A stretch of DNA of 64,000 nucleotides from Escherichia phage A7_1, in the sequence record OP795442; one strand, 5' to 3'. The position numbers and the translations under genes are program-made. Of the stretch, positions 7,864 to 48,733 are shown piece after piece. Positions within the stretch are counted from its first letter, which is position 1. Every line of letters begins with the position of its first letter. The notes under the pieces are model-generated. The model had not been told where the DNA came from, did no database searches, and was given only the letters and a program-made list of their open reading frames with translations.

Positions 7864-8130
7864 TTAGATATAGTCTACACCAGCTTGTTCCAACAAGTCA
7901 AGTCTCAATTTAAGTTCTTTTTCACGATAATCGGAAACAAGTTTATCCTTTTTCTTTTCTTCTTCCTCAAACTGTTCGAGAGGAAGAATACGAATAATGT
8001 GTTCTGCCTTCATGTAGGACGTTGAACCAATAAGCTGAACATTACCATTTGGTAACAATCGGCCCTTGATCACCCGATAACGAGGGAACAAGTCATATTT
8101 AACAATCGCGGTAACTGCTAGATTACTCAT
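7864..8130 (-). CDS. hypothetical protein
   Basis: Track ORF, 88 aa. Confidence 0.45.
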   Translation of the reverse strand: MSNLAVTAIVKYDLFPRYRVIKGRLLPNGNVQLIGSTSYMKAEHIIRILPLEQFEEEEKKKDKLVSDYREKELKLRLDLLEQAGVDYI

Positions 8131-8449
8131 GTGTATTCTCCATATCGCGAATTCGATCTTCTACCCAACCACGACGATAAATGTTGAGGTAAGATTTACC
8201 TTTTGAACCATGATGGGCATATTCGTCAAAATCAAAATCGAAAGGTGTCTCGGTGTTAAGACCTGCATCAAAGAATTGATTCTTCATTTCGAATTGCACT
8301 TTCATATCTGGATCATTTTTACCTAAAAATGAGGACAAATTAAAACAAAGGCCAGCACCTCGGTAAAAAGCCCCATCTTTTGGTGCACCGATATCTAACC
8401 ATTTTTTATATTCTCGGTAGAAATTCAGAAGTTGCGGACTGCTTTTCAT
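8123..8449 (-). CDS. hypothetical protein (paralogue of 18204..18500)
   Basis: Track ORF 8123..8500 begins at a TTG inside a palindrome; likely start is the ATG about 51 nt downstream (MKSSPQLL) behind a GAGGAG SD; shares WLD-GAP / GLC / F-DAGLN / PFD motifs with 18204..18500. Confidence 0.5.
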   Translation of the reverse strand: MKSSPQLLNFYREYKKWLDIGAPKDGAFYRGAGLCFNLSSFLGKNDPDMKVQFEMKNQFFDAGLNTETPFDFDFDEYAHHGSKGKSYLNIYRRGWVEDRIRDMENTHE

Positions 8450-8470
8450 TTTGTTCTCCTCATTTGTTTT

Positions 8471-8498
8471 GATAGGACTACTATAACATAGTCCTATC
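8471..8498. promoter_or_regulatory. perfect 9-bp inverted repeat (GATAGGACT / AGTCCTATC) in the leader of gene 8123..8449
   Basis: Read directly; 10-nt spacer; no flanking T-run so not a terminator; possible operator or RNA structure. Confidence 0.4.
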
Positions 8499-8582
8499 AA
8501 CTTGTATACTATTTAATTAAAGATTTTATGAATACTTGGTAGGACCCTTCTTTAAATACTCATCTGGATAATAAAAATCATC

Positions 8583-8960
8583 CTATACTCCAAATGTGGA
8601 TTTGATTTCAGCAATAACCTCATGCACATTGTTTTCGTTTACTTCAAATGTGTAGGACGTTGGTTTAAGGAACGTCTGAGGTGAAACATTAACAAAGAAT
8701 TCAAATTCATCATCAAAAATTTCAAAGTATTTTCCCGGTGTTGATTCTTGACTTTTGAAAACAGTACCATCTTCCATAGTAACAGAAGAAACAGATTTTT
8801 CACCAAGGGTGTATGTTTTTAACTCATCAACAACGAAACTAGGACCGTGACGACGTAGTATTTCAACCATAGTTCGGTTGGCCCCGCAAATACCTGTCCG
8901 CTTAATAAATAACTCTTCACACCGAGGATTGAGAATATAAGTTTTTCCTACTTGCATCAT
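8583..8960 (-). CDS. hypothetical protein, tandem paralogue 1 of 3
   Basis: 125 aa; N-terminus M-x-(V/I)-GKTY-x-LN shared with the next two genes. Confidence 0.55.
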   Translation of the reverse strand: MMQVGKTYILNPRCEELFIKRTGICGANRTMVEILRRHGPSFVVDELKTYTLGEKSVSSVTMEDGTVFKSQESTPGKYFEIFDDEFEFFVNVSPQTFLKPTSYTFEVNENNVHEVIAEIKSTFGV

Positions 8961-8970
8961 AACAACCCCC

Positions 8971-9330
8971 TTAGGATAAGTTAAATGTGGATTTGATCAG
9001 GTCGATAGTTTCTTGTGCGTTTTGCTCAGATACTGACACCTGGATAATTTTAAGATCACTGACCTCTTCGAAGTATTTGAACTCAGATTCACGAAGTTCA
9101 AAGTACATTGCCCCACAGCCCACACTGAATGAATCACACCCTACAGCACCATCTTCTGTTGTGATGTTATTAACATACTCATCACCTTCGATCATACTCA
9201 TGTTATTAACAATAAATCGCGGCCCGTGCTCATCCAGAAAAGAAACAATCTCGTGATTGTAACTTGGGTCAGCCTTAATAAATTCTTCCACGAATTTTGG
9301 ATTAAGTTTATAAGTTTTACCTACTTCCAT
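8971..9330 (-). CDS. hypothetical protein, tandem paralogue 2 of 3
   Basis: 119 aa; aligns with 9342..9716 (GKTY, HGP-F-VNN, EDG, YFEL-ESEF, NAQET-DLIK-TFNL). Confidence 0.55.
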   Translation of the reverse strand: MEVGKTYKLNPKFVEEFIKADPSYNHEIVSFLDEHGPRFIVNNMSMIEGDEYVNNITTEDGAVGCDSFSVGCGAMYFELRESEFKYFEEVSDLKIIQVSVSEQNAQETIDLIKSTFNLS

Positions 9331-14079: not shown

Positions 14080-14312
14080 CAGTCTTCTATTACCTCAAAT
14101 TCACCACTAAAAGCTACGATAGTTTCACCGTAGCCCATGTTCAATCGGGCAGTTGTAGGTTTGCCATTCCTAGATAGATAGTACACCCTCGCTTCGTAAA
14201 TGTCACCAACTTTTACACCGTAAGCCTGTAGGTCTTTGTTATTGATATCTTTATTTTCAGCATTGATTATTCGAACACTGCTGATCTCTGAGTATACAGA
14301 ATTATCTTTCAT
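14079..14312 (-). CDS. hypothetical protein
   Basis: Track ORF 14079..14354 overlaps its upstream neighbour; the internal ATG (MKDNSVYSE) abuts the upstream stop and is the likelier start. Confidence 0.45.
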   Translation of the reverse strand: MKDNSVYSEISSVRIINAENKDINNKDLQAYGVKVGDIYEARVYYLSRNGKPTTARLNMGYGETIVAFSGEFEVIED

Positions 14313-14596
14313 CAGTATTTTTCCTCTGGACGGAAAACTCCACGGCAAGCCCACATACTTGCTTCTTTGAGGCGATCTTTAGCCTTAGATAAGCAATCAG
14401 ATGCAAAAAGCACGGAATCTAGATCCCCTTCGGGAATCGAAGAGTCATTAGCCAGTCGATTATATTCCTCAATAATCTCGTCTTCTAATGCTTTTAAAAT
14501 AAGACCTAAACGAATTTCAGCATCTTTAATGGCATTCACCTTACCGATTTTTTCATCGGTGTGTGGTTTGTAGCCCTTAATGTCATCAATAGCCAT
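14312..14596 (-). CDS. hypothetical protein
   Basis: Track ORF, 94 aa. Confidence 0.45.
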   Translation of the reverse strand: MAIDDIKGYKPHTDEKIGKVNAIKDAEIRLGLILKALEDEIIEEYNRLANDSSIPEGDLDSVLFASDCLSKAKDRLKEASMWACRGVFRPEEKY

Positions 14597-32440: not shown

Positions 32441-32560
32441 TTTTAACTCCTCGTCGTTTGTATGTGCTAACTATACGAGAACTTGAGGGGAAGATCAATA
32501 CTTGATTTGCATTTTATTTTCATTATACTGTGCACATCTAAAACGAGAAGGAGATAACAA
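32441..32560. promoter_or_regulatory. divergent promoter region
   Basis: Rightward TTGATT-17-TATACT plus AAGGAG SD before 32561; leftward TTGATC-17-TATAGT plus GAGGAG SD before 32440. Confidence 0.55.
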
Positions 32561-33124
32561 ATGAGTCAAGATAAAGAGTTAGCCATTGCGATATCCGTAG
32601 CTGCTTCTGCCCATGTTGACCAAGTAGATAAAGGGGGGAATATCTATATTCTTCATCCTTTGCAGGTGATGCAAACATTGCAGCAAAAGGGAAGGGGAGA
32701 TTTAATGGCAGCAGGAGTTTTGCATGATGTGATTGAAGATACTGAAATCACTATGGAACACCTCTTTAAAAAGGGGATTTCAGAAAGAACCTTAGTGATT
32801 GTCGATGCAGTGACAAAGAAACGTAAGCAATCTTCATCTGATTACCTAGAGGGGATTTTAGAGAGTGAGGGTGCTTGTCATGTTAAGCTTGCGGATCTTA
32901 AACACAACTTAGATATTCTGCGAACTTGTAGCACCACAGAAAAAGACTTGCAACGGGTCAGGAAGTATGTAACAATGCACTTGTTGATTACGGAGATGGT
33001 TGATTGGTATGAAAGTATCGGAAGGTATCTCGATTATTGTGATTCTTTTGCCTATTCTAGCTATCTCGACGAACGTAAAGAATTTGTTCAGAAACTTATT
33101 AAAAAATGGAAGGAGTTTAAATGA
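32561..33124 (+). CDS. HD-domain (p)ppGpp hydrolase, SpoT/Mesh1-like small alarmone hydrolase
   Basis: 187 aa; AHVDQVDKGGNIYILHPL, AAGVLHDVIEDTE, VIVDAVTK, KLADLKHNL match the RelA/SpoT hydrolase HD signature. Confidence 0.8.
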   Translation: MSQDKELAIAISVAASAHVDQVDKGGNIYILHPLQVMQTLQQKGRGDLMAAGVLHDVIEDTEITMEHLFKKGISERTLVIVDAVTKKRKQSSSDYLEGILESEGACHVKLADLKHNLDILRTCSTTEKDLQRVRKYVTMHLLITEMVDWYESIGRYLDYCDSFAYSSYLDERKEFVQKLIKKWKEFK

Positions 33125-33654
33125 AAAAGGTATTGAGTATTGAGCCGTTCACAACAACATACTTTGACGATTTGGAACGTCATGGTGATTATGGGGTACA
33201 AGACGCTGATGGTTGGAAAGAATTCCCTGAAGAAACAAAAGGTGACATTACAAAGCTCGGTTGTAAGATCAATGGATCTGAACCAAAAGGTGTTTACACC
33301 ATGTTTTCTTTCCTTGAAGCTATGAACCCAACGTACAAGGGAGATCGGCAATTTGGTTTTTCTTTTGCATCATTCCTTACTTGTAGCTGTGGTCATGGGG
33401 GTTGTGCAGGCTATCATGATAATGTGGTTATTCGACGTAAAAAGAATACCGTGATGGTCATGGGTAAAAAGGGAGATGGTTATGACGAAGGTGTTGTATT
33501 GACAGGTGAATCTGTTGTATACTTCGATAAAAAGCAGTGGGACGGTGTTCTAGAACACTACCTTAAACTCTTCAAAGAAAATCCTGATGGTGTTTTTGAA
33601 GATGCGGGTTTTATGTTTACTGGTCGTTGGGGGACTAAAAATTTTTCAAAATAA
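33121..33654 (+). CDS. hypothetical protein
   Basis: Track ORF, 177 aa; Cys/His cluster CSCGHGGCAGYH. Confidence 0.5.
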   Translation: MKKVLSIEPFTTTYFDDLERHGDYGVQDADGWKEFPEETKGDITKLGCKINGSEPKGVYTMFSFLEAMNPTYKGDRQFGFSFASFLTCSCGHGGCAGYHDNVVIRRKKNTVMVMGKKGDGYDEGVVLTGESVVYFDKKQWDGVLEHYLKLFKENPDGVFEDAGFMFTGRWGTKNFSK

Positions 33655-33724
33655 TTTAAAAACTTGTTGACTTAAGAAATAGAAAAGATATACTTATCAC
33701 ATCAAAAACAAGAGGAGATATAAA

Positions 33725-34954
33725 ATGCAAGCAACTTATCAACGTATGGACCAAACCATGTTCAAAAAACGTATCAGTGTTCGTGATATGGAATCACTGA
33801 TTCGCCTAGGAGCTTCCATCGGAAAGACCGTATTCTTTTTTGGTGGCGCTGGTCTTGGTAAGTCTGAAAAAGTAAAACAGATCGCTGATTCCATGTTCCC
33901 ACATCGTGTAGGTAATAACCTTTGTGATGTTCGTCTGTCGGATAAAGAGCCACAAGATATCGCAGGTATTCCGATTCCGATCTCTTATCCAGATCCGAAA
34001 ACTGGTAAAGAAGTCACTCGTACCGTATATGCAGTTCCAAACTTTTGGCCTACTGATCCTGATTGGGAAGGTATCGTGTTCTTGGATGAACTGCCAAATG
34101 CACCATTGGGCACTCAGCACTCTGCATATCAGGTTATTCTTGATCACGTTGCAGGTGAGCATAAGTTCCCGAAAGGTACTGTGTTTGTAGGTGCAGGTAA
34201 CCGTGATACTGATGGAGCAGGGACTACTTCTATGCCTGGCCCATTGGTTAACCGTATGATCATTGCAGAAGTTGATTATAATCTGGATGTGTGGATCGAA
34301 GACTATGCGATTCCGTTCCGTCTGCACCCGAACATTATTGGTTTCTTGAAGCAGTTTCCAGAGCATTTCTATACTGGTGACGTAGAAAACCGAAGTACTC
34401 CGGTTTATTCATCTCCTCGTCAATGGAAAACAGCATCTGACATTCTGTACAAGTATGATGCGGGTGAGATTAATGAATTTATCGCAGAGGTTGCTCTTGC
34501 AGGTACAGTTGGTGAAGGCCTGGAAGTACAGATCCTTGCTTATCATTTACGTGCTAAAGAACTTCCTCCGATTGAAGATATCTTTAGTGGTGCAGTTGAA
34601 GAACATAAACTTGATCGCAGTAAGAACGACCTTGTTTACGTCCTGGCACAAACTGGCCTTCGTCGCATGGAAGATGAGGTTATGGATAATGACATGACGG
34701 ATGATAAGTTCCTTGAACGTGCAGGTAACTTCCTTACGTTCATGTACAATAACTATTATGCAAACAACAAGGATACGATGATTGCTTTGATCTTGGGCGT
34801 GTTCCGTGGTCCAAACGATAAGCCATCTATCTTGACTGTTAACCCGAAACGTCAGAAAATGATTCCGCTTATGCGTAAGAGTTGCCCGACTGTTTCTGCC
34901 GCAGTTATGGAATACATGACTCGATATGGTCAACTGATTAAAGAATTCGAATAA
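33725..34954 (+). CDS. MoxR-like AAA+ ATPase
   Basis: 409 aa; Walker A GGAGLGKS, Walker B VFLDELPNA, sensor region VGAGNRD. Confidence 0.8.
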   Translation: MQATYQRMDQTMFKKRISVRDMESLIRLGASIGKTVFFFGGAGLGKSEKVKQIADSMFPHRVGNNLCDVRLSDKEPQDIAGIPIPISYPDPKTGKEVTRTVYAVPNFWPTDPDWEGIVFLDELPNAPLGTQHSAYQVILDHVAGEHKFPKGTVFVGAGNRDTDGAGTTSMPGPLVNRMIIAEVDYNLDVWIEDYAIPFRLHPNIIGFLKQFPEHFYTGDVENRSTPVYSSPRQWKTASDILYKYDAGEINEFIAEVALAGTVGEGLEVQILAYHLRAKELPPIEDIFSGAVEEHKLDRSKNDLVYVLAQTGLRRMEDEVMDNDMTDDKFLERAGNFLTFMYNNYYANNKDTMIALILGVFRGPNDKPSILTVNPKRQKMIPLMRKSCPTVSAAVMEYMTRYGQLIKEFE

Positions 34955-34959
34955 TCTCT

Positions 34960-35020
34960 TGACAACGAAAAACAGTTAACTTAATATAAGGGCATCTCGA
35001 AAGAGGTGTCCTTTTTTAAT
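34960..35020 (+). promoter_or_regulatory. promoter plus leader hairpin for the HNH endonuclease gene
   Basis: TTGACA-17-TAATAT followed by a catctc/gaggtg hairpin and T-run; approximate. Confidence 0.4.
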
Positions 35021-35029
35021 TTGGAGAAA

Positions 35030-35524
35030 ATGATGGATTTCATAAAAGAAGGATTTTCTTTCGACCCCCTTGCAAAGTTTCTACTAAGGAGAAATGGAAG
35101 AGAAGTAGGGAATGTAGTAAAGAATCATAAAGGTTATGATAAAGACTATGTACGTGTAACATGGTCAAGGGAAAGGAAAAGAAAATCTGCGTATGCTCAC
35201 AGGATCATTTGGGAATTGCATTATGGCAAGATACCTGATGGTTATTGTATAGACCACATAAATGGAGATGGTTTGGATAACAGGATTGAAAACTTAAGAT
35301 TGGCAACTAAGAGTCAGAATGGTCAAAACAGGAAAAACAACAAGAATAAAAAGGATGGTCTTCCTAAAGGTGTAGTTATGAATCATGGAAAATACACAGG
35401 AAGGGTCTATGTAAATGGAAAAAGGTTACAGAAAATTAGTTCCGACCTTGACGAAATAGTCAATTGGTTGGAGAATAAACGTAAAGAAAATCACGGTGTG
35501 TTCATGAACAATGGAGAACAATAA
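35030..35524 (+). CDS. HNH homing endonuclease, free-standing
   Basis: Track ORF 35006..35524 begins at GTG inside a hairpin; ATG at about 35030 behind GGAG; core HRIIWELHYGKIPDGYCIDHINGDGLDNRIENLRLATKSQN. Confidence 0.8.
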   Translation: MMDFIKEGFSFDPLAKFLLRRNGREVGNVVKNHKGYDKDYVRVTWSRERKRKSAYAHRIIWELHYGKIPDGYCIDHINGDGLDNRIENLRLATKSQNGQNRKNNKNKKDGLPKGVVMNHGKYTGRVYVNGKRLQKISSDLDEIVNWLENKRKENHGVFMNNGEQ

Positions 35525-37062
35525 TGTCAAAAATTAGTCAAGAAGAAAAAGATATGATCGAAATGCAAGTCTTCGAAGCTGAACGTATTATTGAAGCTGC
35601 AAGTCTTCAACTTATGCGCTTCAAAGCGTTCTACGGGGTTATGCTTTCGTCTATGCCTGTTAAAAAGGCGACGGAGTGGTGTAGTACAATGGCGACTGAT
35701 GGACGTAACCTGTATTACCATCCAGAGTTCGTTGCAGGTATGACAGAAGAACGTAAAAAATTGGTACTTGAGCGACTTTCCAAATCTGAGAAAGATCCTA
35801 AAAAGCTGAAAGAGGGTATTGAGTTTATCAATGTCTTCTATCGTCGAAAGACTGCTCGTGAGCTTGCTCTTATTCTTGAGCACGAATGCGATCATGTGAT
35901 CTCTGATCACGCTTCTCGTGGTAAAGGGTTTAATCATGAGCTTTACAATATTGCAGCGGATCATCGTATCAATACAACGGCTGTGCTTATTCACCAGAAA
36001 GGGGATGAGCTAGGTAAAGCCTGGTTCCCTGCCGGAGAGAGAACGGTATTTGATAAAAATGCTGAATTTGGATTTATGGCCTGGTCTTACTGTGATTTCC
36101 GATTCAAAGATATGTATACTGAGCAGATCTATGAAATCCTGAATAAAGAGCAAGATGATAAAGAAAAATCCAAAGGGAAAGGTTCTGGTTCTGGAAGTGG
36201 AGAGGGTGATGGTGAAGAAGGTGGTCAAGGTCGTAAAGGTGTTGATCAACACATGGATCAGAATGGTGATCCAGAAGATTCAGAAGGTGATGATATCGAA
36301 GATGCACTGGGAATCGACCGTAAAGCGAAGCCTAAGCAAACAGCAGAGGAACGCCAGTATAACGATGGGGTTATGCGTCGAGCCATTGAGAATGCCGTAC
36401 AGGCAGCAGGAAGCGGTGCACCGGAAGATGCTCGTCGTTTTGTAGAAGCGGCGGGTAAACCAAAGATTAATTATCTTCGTTTGTTGCGTAAAACTATTGA
36501 ACGTCTGTTCAAAGATGATGTATCATATCGTCGTTTGTCACGCCGTAGTCACTCGTTAACTCGGACTCTTCGTGGCTCGGGTTACTTATCTGGACGACAG
36601 ACGATTGGTTTACCCTCAAAGAATAAACAGAAGACTATTCGTGCAGGTGTCTTCTTCGACGTATCTGGATCATTTAACGATGATCTGTTAAGACCAACAA
36701 TGCGTGAGATTCGTGGATTGTGTAATCTTTACGATGAGTTTGAAGTTACAATGGCTTGCTGGTCAACAAAGGTTGGTAACATTGAAACGTATACGAAGAA
36801 GAATGTGAATGAGATTGCTAACTACAAGATCAAGACCACATTTGGTACGGATGTTTCTTGTGTGTTCGAGGCATTAGATGAAATGAAAGACCCTATGGAT
36901 CAGATCATCATCTACACTGACGGTTACTTTGCTGATGTATCCCAAAAGAAAGATTGGGCCAAAAAGTATGGTAAGAATGTTCTTTGGATTATCCTGGGTC
37001 GTGGGTCTTCGTTCACCCCGCCTTTTGGCAAGGCAATTGATTTTGACAAGTATCTTAAATAA
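35524..37062 (+). CDS. VWA-domain protein with N-terminal HExxH metallopeptidase-like domain (MoxR partner)
   Basis: 512 aa; HECDH zincin-like motif; C-terminal VFFDVSGSF MIDAS motif; Gly/Asp/Glu-rich linker. Confidence 0.8.
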   Translation: MSKISQEEKDMIEMQVFEAERIIEAASLQLMRFKAFYGVMLSSMPVKKATEWCSTMATDGRNLYYHPEFVAGMTEERKKLVLERLSKSEKDPKKLKEGIEFINVFYRRKTARELALILEHECDHVISDHASRGKGFNHELYNIAADHRINTTAVLIHQKGDELGKAWFPAGERTVFDKNAEFGFMAWSYCDFRFKDMYTEQIYEILNKEQDDKEKSKGKGSGSGSGEGDGEEGGQGRKGVDQHMDQNGDPEDSEGDDIEDALGIDRKAKPKQTAEERQYNDGVMRRAIENAVQAAGSGAPEDARRFVEAAGKPKINYLRLLRKTIERLFKDDVSYRRLSRRSHSLTRTLRGSGYLSGRQTIGLPSKNKQKTIRAGVFFDVSGSFNDDLLRPTMREIRGLCNLYDEFEVTMACWSTKVGNIETYTKKNVNEIANYKIKTTFGTDVSCVFEALDEMKDPMDQIIIYTDGYFADVSQKKDWAKKYGKNVLWIILGRGSSFTPPFGKAIDFDKYLK

Positions 37063-46703: not shown

Positions 46704-47036
46704 ATGAGCTTTTTATCTATCGTGCAGACTAACTTTGAAAATGATTTTATTGCTCAAGCTATCAACATTGACAAAGGTATCCCAAATATCAATTTTGGTT
46801 TTAATAGTGGTGGTTATGAGAGATACCAGTATTTTGTAACTGACGATGGAAGTGTTTTAGGTATCAATACGGTGATGGCTAATATCCAAAACATTAATTT
46901 CAATGATCCCGATGAGCGCTCATTCTATATCGTCGGTATCCAGGTGAACTACAATGATGACTCTTTAATCGATGATTACACTGGCGAGACGTTAGAGAGT
47001 GCTTACGGTGATGAATCAGAAGAAGAAGAAGAATAA
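46704..47036 (+). CDS. strongly acidic small protein
   Basis: 110 aa; many Asp/Glu, almost no Lys/Arg; ends DESEEEEE. Confidence 0.55.
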   Translation: MSFLSIVQTNFENDFIAQAINIDKGIPNINFGFNSGGYERYQYFVTDDGSVLGINTVMANIQNINFNDPDERSFYIVGIQVNYNDDSLIDDYTGETLESAYGDESEEEEE

Positions 47037-48367: not shown

Positions 48368-48396
48368 TTGCATCCATTATTGAGAGGATGTATATT
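48368..48396 (+). promoter_or_regulatory. sigma70-like promoter
   Basis: TTGCAT-17-TATATT. Confidence 0.5.
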
Positions 48397-48439
48397 AGTT
48401 TCATCAAGACGAAATGATGATAATCAAAAGGTGATTGCT

Positions 48440-48733
48440 ATGTTATACGAAGTTTTTGCAGGTTTCTGTTTTTATGGTGCTGCCGCCGTTCGCCAGTGTG
48501 ATGATTATGTAGTTGAATCATTCGATGATCCTTTGGCGTGTGAGATTGTTACTACGGCGTATGAGCAAGATCGCCGTTGGATTAATCCGGCCTGTATCGC
48601 ATCGCCTGAGGTTGAACCTATGCCGGAAGGTGAGGAATTAACAGAGGAAGACTTGCAAGAAGTAAAAGAAGTTATGAGCTACATGATTGATAATCTGGAC
48701 GCTGAAAACTTACAACGTGCATTGCAAAAATAA
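48440..48733 (+). CDS. hypothetical acidic protein
   Basis: Track ORF 48368 begins in the promoter; ATG at about 48440 (MLYEVFAGF) is likelier. Confidence 0.5.
   Translation: MLYEVFAGFCFYGAAAVRQCDDYVVESFDDPLACEIVTTAYEQDRRWINPACIASPEVEPMPEGEELTEEDLQEVKEVMSYMIDNLDAENLQRALQK

Follow-up and report, generated by a model that had tools for sequence, protein, structure and literature searches.

A predicted Aph1-like small alarmone hydrolase behind a divergent promoter pair of Escherichia phage A7_1 as a candidate early counter-defence enzyme

We have analysed a stretch of 64,000 nucleotides of Escherichia phage A7_1 (sequence record OP795442), which is called the window here at its full length, and within it a gene at 32561-33124 on the plus strand that encodes a small alarmone hydrolase (SAH), most likely of the Aph1-like, PbcSpo-type group. 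The open reading frame (ORF) was confirmed with its ATG start and encodes a protein of 187 amino acids (aa) and 21.5 kDa. A ribosome-binding site, AAGGAG (32548-32553, plus strand), lies 7 nt upstream of the ATG. Escherichia phage A5-4, a 145 kb phage of the Vequintavirinae isolated on E. coli K-12, matches the window at 98.9% identity, and the phages LTH01, A73, UPEC06, and W70 do so at 94-97%. The records of the relatives name the hydrolase 'hypothetical protein' or, wrongly, 'GTP pyrophosphokinase' (UPEC06, L001:3662-4225), a name given to a protein that has no synthetase domain. The gene has a GC content of 39.2%, which matches the 40.2% of the whole window, and a recent horizontal import of the gene was rejected on this base composition. 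No tRNA genes were found in the 64,000 nt of the window.

In a crude gene call, the leftward arm spans 2218-32440 and the rightward arm runs from 32561 to about 57500, and the hydrolase is the first gene after this divergent switch. The divergent intergenic region of 120 bp (32441-32560) contains sigma70-like hexamers on both strands. The leftward promoter reads TTGATC-17-TATAGT (32470-32498, minus strand) and the rightward promoter TTGATT-16-TATACT (32502-32529, plus strand), each with a 9/12 match, and the latter lies about 30 nt before the hydrolase gene begins. Both hexamers of the leftward promoter fall in blocks conserved in Cronobacter phage CR8, and in the rightward promoter, the conservation with this phage covers the -35 block and, within the -10 element, TACT. 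The hydrolase of CR8 is only about 43% identical in protein to that of the window. The promoter-like sites in the region number 19 against 16.2 in shuffled sequences, which is not above chance, so that the case for the promoters rests on position and conservation. Because the hexamers fall in the CR8-conserved blocks, the description of the gene as promoter-proximal, made in a first-pass annotation of this DNA, is supported: the hydrolase opens the rightward arm and stands directly behind a conserved divergent promoter pair. Considering that this host-type promoter is located at the divergent switch of a non-structural region, the hydrolase is probably made early.

The encoded protein is an HD-domain SAH of the RSH superfamily with intact catalytic residues. 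It contains the motifs ILHPLQV (aa 30-36), LHDVIEDT (aa 54-61), and KLADLKHNL (aa 109-117), and its sole Pfam match is HD_4, at 30.7 bits (gathering cut-off 27.2). The NCBIfam model TIGR00691 (spoT_relA) matches it at positions 1-85 of 687, which represent the N-terminal hydrolase part of the model, and PHROG 990, 'metal-dependent phosphohydrolase', matches it with an E value of 1.3e-51. No synthetase domain was found in the 187-aa protein with the Pfam and NCBIfam profiles or in the AlphaFold (AF2) model. The first-pass annotation had read a full HD-hydrolase signature without a synthetase domain from the letters, and all of the motifs that it quoted are present. The metal-binding and catalytic residues of the HD site and the ED dyad are H32, H55-D56, E59-D60, K109, D112, and N116. 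Across 61 homologs H32, H55, E59, D60, K109, D112, N116, and Y136 are invariant, and D56 is found in 60 of them. The top sequence match in the PDB is 7SMG, the '(p)ppApp hydrolase' Aph1, with an E value of 1.4e-21 and 33-34% identity. The matches to HD_4, TIGR00691, PHROG 990, and 7SMG place the family assignment far above chance, and the protein is most likely an active, metal-dependent single-domain enzyme of the Aph1-like (PbcSpo-type) group, as judged from its sequence.

The AF2 model, computed from the 61 homologs, shows a single all-helical domain with a pLDDT of 92.8 and a pTM of 0.89. The four chains of 7SMG are its best structural matches (TM 0.89-0.92 by target length, rmsd 1.3-1.6 Å over about 140 residues), and MESH1 follows at TM 0.64-0.67 and rmsd 3.7 Å, with SpoT, PaSAH, and Rel next in rank. 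Among the PDB sequence matches, the HD domains of Rel and SpoT reach E values of about 1e-11 and MESH1 7e-8 to 7e-7. Accordingly, the 'SpoT/Mesh1-like' filing of the first-pass annotation does not hold in detail, in that the E value favours Aph1 by 10 orders of magnitude and the TM score to it is 0.9 against 0.65. The 61-sequence alignment and the mapping to 7SMG define a catalytic HD core of aa 1-143 (32561-32989, plus strand), which is the counterpart of full-length Aph1. The remaining aa 144-187 (32990-33121, plus strand) form a C-terminal extension in the AF2 model, with pLDDT values of 74-95, in which the last core helix (aa 127-157) is prolonged and an extra helix (aa 162-186) is added. 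Among the aligned homologs, this extension is common only to the window protein, the protein of the Certrevirus CR8, and one metagenomic homolog (P0002).

Aph1 (adenosine 3'-pyrophosphohydrolase 1) from a Bacteroides caccae prophage is the founding (p)ppApp-specific hydrolase (Ahmad et al. 2023, PMC10083569). Enzymes of its family hydrolyse (p)ppApp at a high rate and leave ppGpp mostly untouched; among purified homologs, 12 of 12 hydrolysed ppApp and 2 of 12 showed modest ppGpp hydrolysis (PMC10083569). The specificity was assigned to a signature of six residues, D24, R96, D116, R119, K133, and Y134, of which R96 sits away from the active site, and the double change D24R + R119A makes Aph1 gain ppGpp hydrolysis (PMC10083569). 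The chain numbering of 7SMG is the same as the numbering of that paper, as D24-K25-A26 can be read in the alignment. The hydrolase of the window keeps five of the six residues, all of them proximal to the active site: D23 for D24 (conserved in 56 of the 61 homologs), D118 for D116 (43/61), R121 for R119 (57/61), K135 for K133 (54/61), and Y136 for Y134 (61/61). The guanine-contacting residues R43/R44/S45 of TtRel correspond to D23/K24/G25 in the phage protein, and Rel proteins have R-K-N/S at these positions. The replacement of these residues likewise speaks against filing the protein with SpoT and Mesh1. In a direct alignment with S. aureus Rel, Rel has R at the first signature site, E-T in place of K-Y, two residues lost from the D-x-x-R element, and an 8-residue insertion without a counterpart in Aph1 or the phage proteins.

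The C-terminal part of Aph1 was also used alone as a query, following the criterion of PMC10083569 (about 53 residues, Y90-E143, with the HD motif excluded), in a single pass here and iteratively in that paper. The 52-aa segment Y90-L141 recovered the window protein (BLASTP 2e-6; phmmer E 3.8e-4 with Z set to 177,635, the size of the PDB) together with all of the phage orthologs, and the HD fragment of S. aureus Rel was not retrieved by this query in phmmer or BLASTP. Based on sequence and fold, the hydrolase most likely groups with Aph1 in the adenosine-specific branch, and we infer its substrate preference from this grouping.

An ortholog of the gene has been studied in cells. The SAH of the Salmonella phage PVP-SE1, placed in the PbcSpo subfamily and termed 'stand-alone', neutralised five of five toxSAS in E. 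coli, namely CapRel, PhRel2, FaRel2, PhRel, and FaRel, which include both (pp)pApp-making and tRNA-pyrophosphorylating toxins (Jimmy et al. 2020, PMC7229694, Table 1). The DNA of PVP-SE1 gene 220 is 100% identical to that of SSE121 gp108, and its product matches aa 1-154 of the window protein with 47% identity (E 3e-44) and has the same signature residues and a G at the R96 position. Taken as a proxy, the 47% identity (E 3e-44) to a protein classed as PbcSpo suggests that the window protein belongs to the same subfamily.

On these grounds, we favour the view that the hydrolase is an early counter-defence enzyme that would hydrolyse adenosine 3'-pyrophosphates on (p)ppApp and/or on the CCA ends of tRNA, and we consider it somewhat probable. 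The gene would be transcribed from the host-type promoter at the divergent switch to give an early product, which would strip the 3'-pyrophosphate from adenosine-based substrates. By doing so, the enzyme may undo the products of host toxSAS (toxin-antitoxin systems of the CapRel and FaRel types) or of injected toxins of the Tas1 type. One such product is (pp)pApp, which depletes ATP and shuts down purine synthesis. The other is a pyrophosphate attached to the 3' adenosine of the tRNA CCA end, and it halts translation. Abortive-infection defences of the toxSAS type could thus be cancelled early in infection. Both product classes, (pp)pApp and tRNA-A76-3'-pp, are 3'-pyrophosphates of adenosine, and we infer that one adenine-selective pocket could accommodate either.

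Several observations weigh against this counter-defence role with adenosine specificity, or against its likeness to Aph1 and the tested ortholog. The distal residue R96 of Aph1 is replaced by G98 in the window protein, and G also occurs in the proteins of CR8, PVP-SE1, and Av-05 and in P0002; the column contains R in 34 of the 61 homologs, and most phage orthologs have G. The signature itself does not exclude ppGpp activity, as seen in the 2 of 12 Aph1 homologs that modestly hydrolyse ppGpp. The compact 8-helix protomer of Aph1, without a helix 9, is said to permit the tetramer (PMC10083569), and the window model departs from it by adding the helix of aa 162-186. Because of this extra C-terminal helix, the oligomeric state, and perhaps the regulation, may differ from those of Aph1. 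The rescue by the PVP-SE1 enzyme was a co-expression experiment that involved no infection. Also, gene 220 was equated with the tested construct on the ground that it is the only family member found in the PVP-SE1 genome.

The same pocket residues bear on another role, in which the enzyme would hydrolyse (p)ppGpp and reduce the ppGpp level of the host, so that a blunted stringent response keeps the transcription and translation capacity of the host available for the phage. The protein shares the HD superfamily with the SpoT, Rel, and MESH1 hydrolases, some records call its orthologs 'guanosine-3',5'-bis(diphosphate) 3'-pyrophosphohydrolase', and the modest activity of two of the twelve Aph1 homologs would agree with such a role. 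However, D23 and R121, which are kept in the phage protein, correspond to the two positions that had to be altered in Aph1 for ppGpp activity, and the guanine contacts of TtRel are replaced. In addition, sequence and fold are far nearer to Aph1 than to SpoT or MESH1, and Rel lacks the D-x-x-R and K-Y elements. We therefore consider ppGpp hydrolysis as the main activity unlikely. The first-pass annotation had proposed two roles, blunting the host stringent response and countering alarmone-based defence toxins. On the one hand, the countering of alarmone-type toxins is plausible. On the other hand, a blunting of the stringent response ranks behind it in likelihood because the Aph1 specificity residues take the place of the guanine-binding residues of Rel and SpoT.

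Within the counter-defence role, the substrate in the cell may be the 3'-pyrophosphorylated CCA end of tRNA, and the hydrolase may perform the first step of a phage repair kit for tRNA 3' ends. We regard this as a tentative proposal. Outside the window, the A5-4 genome has genes for the RNA-repair nucleotidyltransferase RlaP, for a protein with the cyclic-phosphate-processing domain cREC_REC, and for a CCA tRNA nucleotidyltransferase with a PolyA_pol head; an HD domain match was found in the same ORF set as the latter. If the substrate is tRNA, this set for RNA repair and counter-defence may act together with the hydrolase, and the lineage-specific C-terminal helix could be an adaptation for tRNA binding or oligomerisation. 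If this tRNA proposal is true, the terminal A76 present in all tRNAs would account for the adenine-specific pocket, and the Vequintavirinae would have a built-in resistance to translation-blocking defences of the CapRel, FaRel2, and PhRel types. The leftward arm of the window also encodes a 94-aa homolog of Acb2/Vs.4 (14312-14596, minus strand), with a Pfam Acb2_Tad1_hairpin match of E 1e-14 to 1e-16 and an E value of 1.6e-27 to T4 Vs.4 (PDB 7UQ2), and its product is likely an anti-CBASS cyclic-nucleotide sponge, as predicted from these matches. As this homolog and the RNA-repair genes are present, the genome appears equipped for such conflicts. The part of the A5-4 genome at 96000-145365 (L007; for example, L007:12732-14009, minus strand) also contains NADAR and three 'anti-restriction nuclease' genes.

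A role as a general nucleotide or cofactor phosphatase, such as a MESH1-like NADPH phosphatase or an enzyme of nucleotide salvage unrelated to alarmones or defence, is in our view very improbable. The structural relative MESH1 acts as an NADPH phosphatase (PDB 5VXA), and the hydrolase gene follows a gene annotated as 'thymidylate kinase' in other Vequintavirinae and stands among nucleotide-metabolism genes in PAK_P1. However, the similarity to MESH1 is much weaker than that to Aph1, all twelve purified Aph1 homologs hydrolysed ppApp (PMC10083569), the ortholog rescues cells from toxSAS toxicity (PMC7229694), and the phage studied here has no 'thymidylate kinase' gene.

In the least probable role, the enzyme would confer immunity to a (p)ppApp synthetase toxin that the phage itself carries, as Aph1 does for the MuF-fused Apk2 (PMC10083569). 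The streptococcal prophage IPP64, in which a MuF/SPP1 gp7-family gene is found two genes upstream of the homolog, speaks for this role. Against it stand Pfam scans that found no RelA_SpoT synthetase or MuF domain in the 147 ORFs of the window and the ORFs of at least 70 aa in the remainder of the near-identical genome A5-4, the location of the gene at a divergent promoter of early type and a long way from the genes for head morphogenesis, and the term stand-alone that Jimmy et al. applied to the PVP-SE1 enzyme (PMC7229694). The ORF sets were split for these scans, so that the lists of families are complete or nearly so, and because no synthetase or MuF toxin was detected across the phage genome, we do not read the gene as self-immunity. 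In IPP64 (L008:1665-3869), the homolog has 137 aa, the head-morphogenesis gene of the MuF/SPP1 gp7 family encodes 527 aa, and an ORF of 69 aa lies between them. In gene order, this layout is that of the module of Apk2 toxin, Tis1-like immunity protein, and Aph1. The comparison of IPP64 with the present phage indicates that the family occurs in both contexts, MuF-linked and stand-alone.

Downstream of the hydrolase, gene 2 (33121-33654, plus strand; PHROG 8242) encodes a protein of 177 aa. Its start codon and the stop codon of the hydrolase overlap (ATGA), and the gene has an AAGGAG of its own. The protein contains a C-x-C-G-H-G-G-C motif and has no match in Pfam, PDB, or PADLOC. Gene 2 is restricted to the lineage of the window and the Certrevirus CR8, in which three genes lie between it and the hydrolase. 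With no domain matches and with this separation in CR8, gene 2 was rejected as a partner of the hydrolase.

The next gene (33725-34954, plus strand; PHROG 1297) encodes a protein of 409 aa that is a MoxR-like AAA+ ATPase by fold match. Its AF2 model has a pLDDT of 89.5, and the top 15 Foldseek matches are all NorQ or CbbQ, with TM scores of 0.57-0.65 by target length. NorQ and CbbQ are MoxR-class AAA+ ATPases that work with the VWA partners NorD and CbbO. The Walker A motif GGAGLGKS and the Walker B motif FLDE are invariant. No Pfam match was found even at E<=10, AAA_3 and AAA_5 included, and none in NCBIfam, the PDB sequences, or PADLOC; none of 79 homologs of the ATPase has a Pfam domain on record. 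A homolog in the Salmonella phage SSBI34 is misnamed 'ribosomal protein uS19'. The presumed partner is a protein of 512 aa (35524-37062, plus strand) with matches to the metallopeptidase-like DUF2201_N (Pfam E 6.5e-25) and the VWA-like DUF2201 (7.9e-08). It has a low-complexity linker rich in Gly, Ser, Glu, and Asp around aa 210-260. PHROG 1314 and the RefSeq records of CR8, Mydo, Av-05, and SSE121 (proteins of relatives at L002:9419-10975, L003:2044-3471, L004:2214-3650, and L005:1170-2606) give this protein as 'HNH endonuclease', apparently an annotation error that has been propagated.

The genes of the ATPase and the VWA-like protein are separated by an HNH_3 homing-endonuclease gene (35006-35524, plus strand). 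It is present in A5-4 and absent from LTH01, A73, UPEC06, and W70, to which the query aligns in two pieces with 91% coverage. Since these four close relatives are without it, we consider the HNH gene a recent mobile insertion. Promoter-like sites with a stronger match (10/12) stand before the ATPase gene at 33667-33694 and before the HNH gene at 34959-34987. Behind the ATPase gene, a terminator-like hairpin (34988-35013) overlaps the start of the HNH gene. The VWA gene lies on the opposite arm in Seunavirus, Mydovirus, and Avunavirus, in which the hydrolase comes second, after 'thymidylate kinase', a gene that is absent from the present phage. No MoxR gene was found near the hydrolase homolog in Aeromonas phage 31, Pseudomonas phage PAK_P1, or Streptococcus phage IPP64.

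These results bear on the proposal of the first-pass annotation that the hydrolase heads one operon with a MoxR-VWA pair. The pair itself is reasonable by fold (NorQ/CbbQ and the VWA-like DUF2201), although a MoxR match at the level of sequence is lacking for the ATPase. A single operon is not supported, in view of the internal 10/12 promoter-like sites, the terminator-like hairpin, and the gene order that varies between genera. A functional coupling of the hydrolase to the pair was also considered and rejected, as the order differs among the Vequintavirinae and the pair is absent beside the homologs of the Streptococcus, Aeromonas, and Pseudomonas phages. We read the linkage of the hydrolase and the ATPase as conserved synteny within one subfamily, which gives no sign of a common function.

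Further features were observed in the window and its relatives. Three tandem genes of the FRD2 family (T4 Frd2-like) lie in the leftward arm at 8123-9330 (minus strand). Two DUF7249 paralogs are found in the rightward arm at about 46704-47036 and 48368-48733 (plus strand), and both begin with MA.K.K...HKNK.HWNVSLW. In Mydo, Av-05, and PAK_P1, the arm with the hydrolase contains genes for a phosphatase/phosphoesterase, a macro-domain protein, and an RNA ligase within a few kb, and this neighbourhood with RNA-repair genes recurs at L003:11441-12459 (Mydo), L004:9404-11489 (Av-05), and L010:4296-6710 (PAK_P1).

Toxic alarmone synthetases, such as CapRel, FaRel, PhRel, and their relatives, are widespread anti-phage defences of the toxin-antitoxin kind, and for a virus, the obvious reply is an enzyme that removes their products. 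In the literature searched, this counter-action of hydrolases has been seen by co-expression in E. coli only and never during infection. Because the phage grows on K-12, the ortholog studied here is tractable and would provide a convenient system for an infection test. The hydrolase is not new as a kind, since the PVP-SE1 ortholog was tested against toxSAS in 2020 (PMC7229694); the stand-alone SAHs of phages, their neutralisation of toxSAS, and the Aph1 family are already published. What we add is the assignment to the adenosine-specific branch, the exclusion of self-immunity, and the description of the lineage-specific C-terminal helix. The predicted adenosine specificity corrects the public labels 'hypothetical protein' and 'GTP pyrophosphokinase' and, if true, predicts that the phage leaves ppGpp alone through this gene.

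Compared with known systems, the window protein shares the HD superfamily fold, the metal-binding H..HD..D residues, and the ED dyad with SpoT, Rel, and MESH1, but these are more distant, with E values of 1e-11 to 7e-7 and TM scores of 0.6-0.67; Rel and SpoT are multidomain proteins, and Rel has an 8-residue insertion and is without the D-x-x-R and K-Y elements. By their published descriptions, ATfaRel and PaSpo resemble the window protein as SAHs of a single domain, and they detoxify toxSAS that produce (pp)pApp as well as those that pyrophosphorylate tRNA. ATfaRel, the type IV antitoxin SAH of Cellulomonas marina, and MESH1 restore the aminoacylation of FaRel2-pyrophosphorylated tRNA in vitro, and PaSpo, the SAH of the Salmonella phage SSU5, takes off the pyrophosphate modification of tRNA. 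They differ in that the ATfaRel gene adjoins its toxin and PaSpo belongs to a different SAH subfamily. The family is broad: tblastn found it in 429 phage records, including Vequintavirinae, Pakpunavirus, T4-like phages of Aeromonas, and streptococcal prophages, and homologs of the size of Aph1 were common on large Bacillus and Pseudomonas plasmids in a plasmid search.

The closest counterparts are the PVP-SE1 ortholog and Aph1. The PVP-SE1 gene comes from the same phage subfamily and, like the window gene, is located near the divergent early promoter and the ATPase. On the other hand, its protein has 169 aa, with an 11-residue N-terminal extension and without the last helix, and the gene stands second in its arm behind the 'thymidylate kinase' gene, with the VWA gene on the opposite arm. 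In a temperate phage, Aph1 provides immunity to a MuF-fused (p)ppApp synthetase encoded next to it, whereas the window gene is stand-alone in a large myovirus of the Vequintavirinae, for which no integrase or repressor was seen in the Pfam scans. The window protein has 44 more C-terminal residues than Aph1, which form the added helix, and G in place of R96. In spite of these differences, the two phage-borne enzymes have the same HD catalytic core without the Rel insertions, including the equivalents of D24 and R119.

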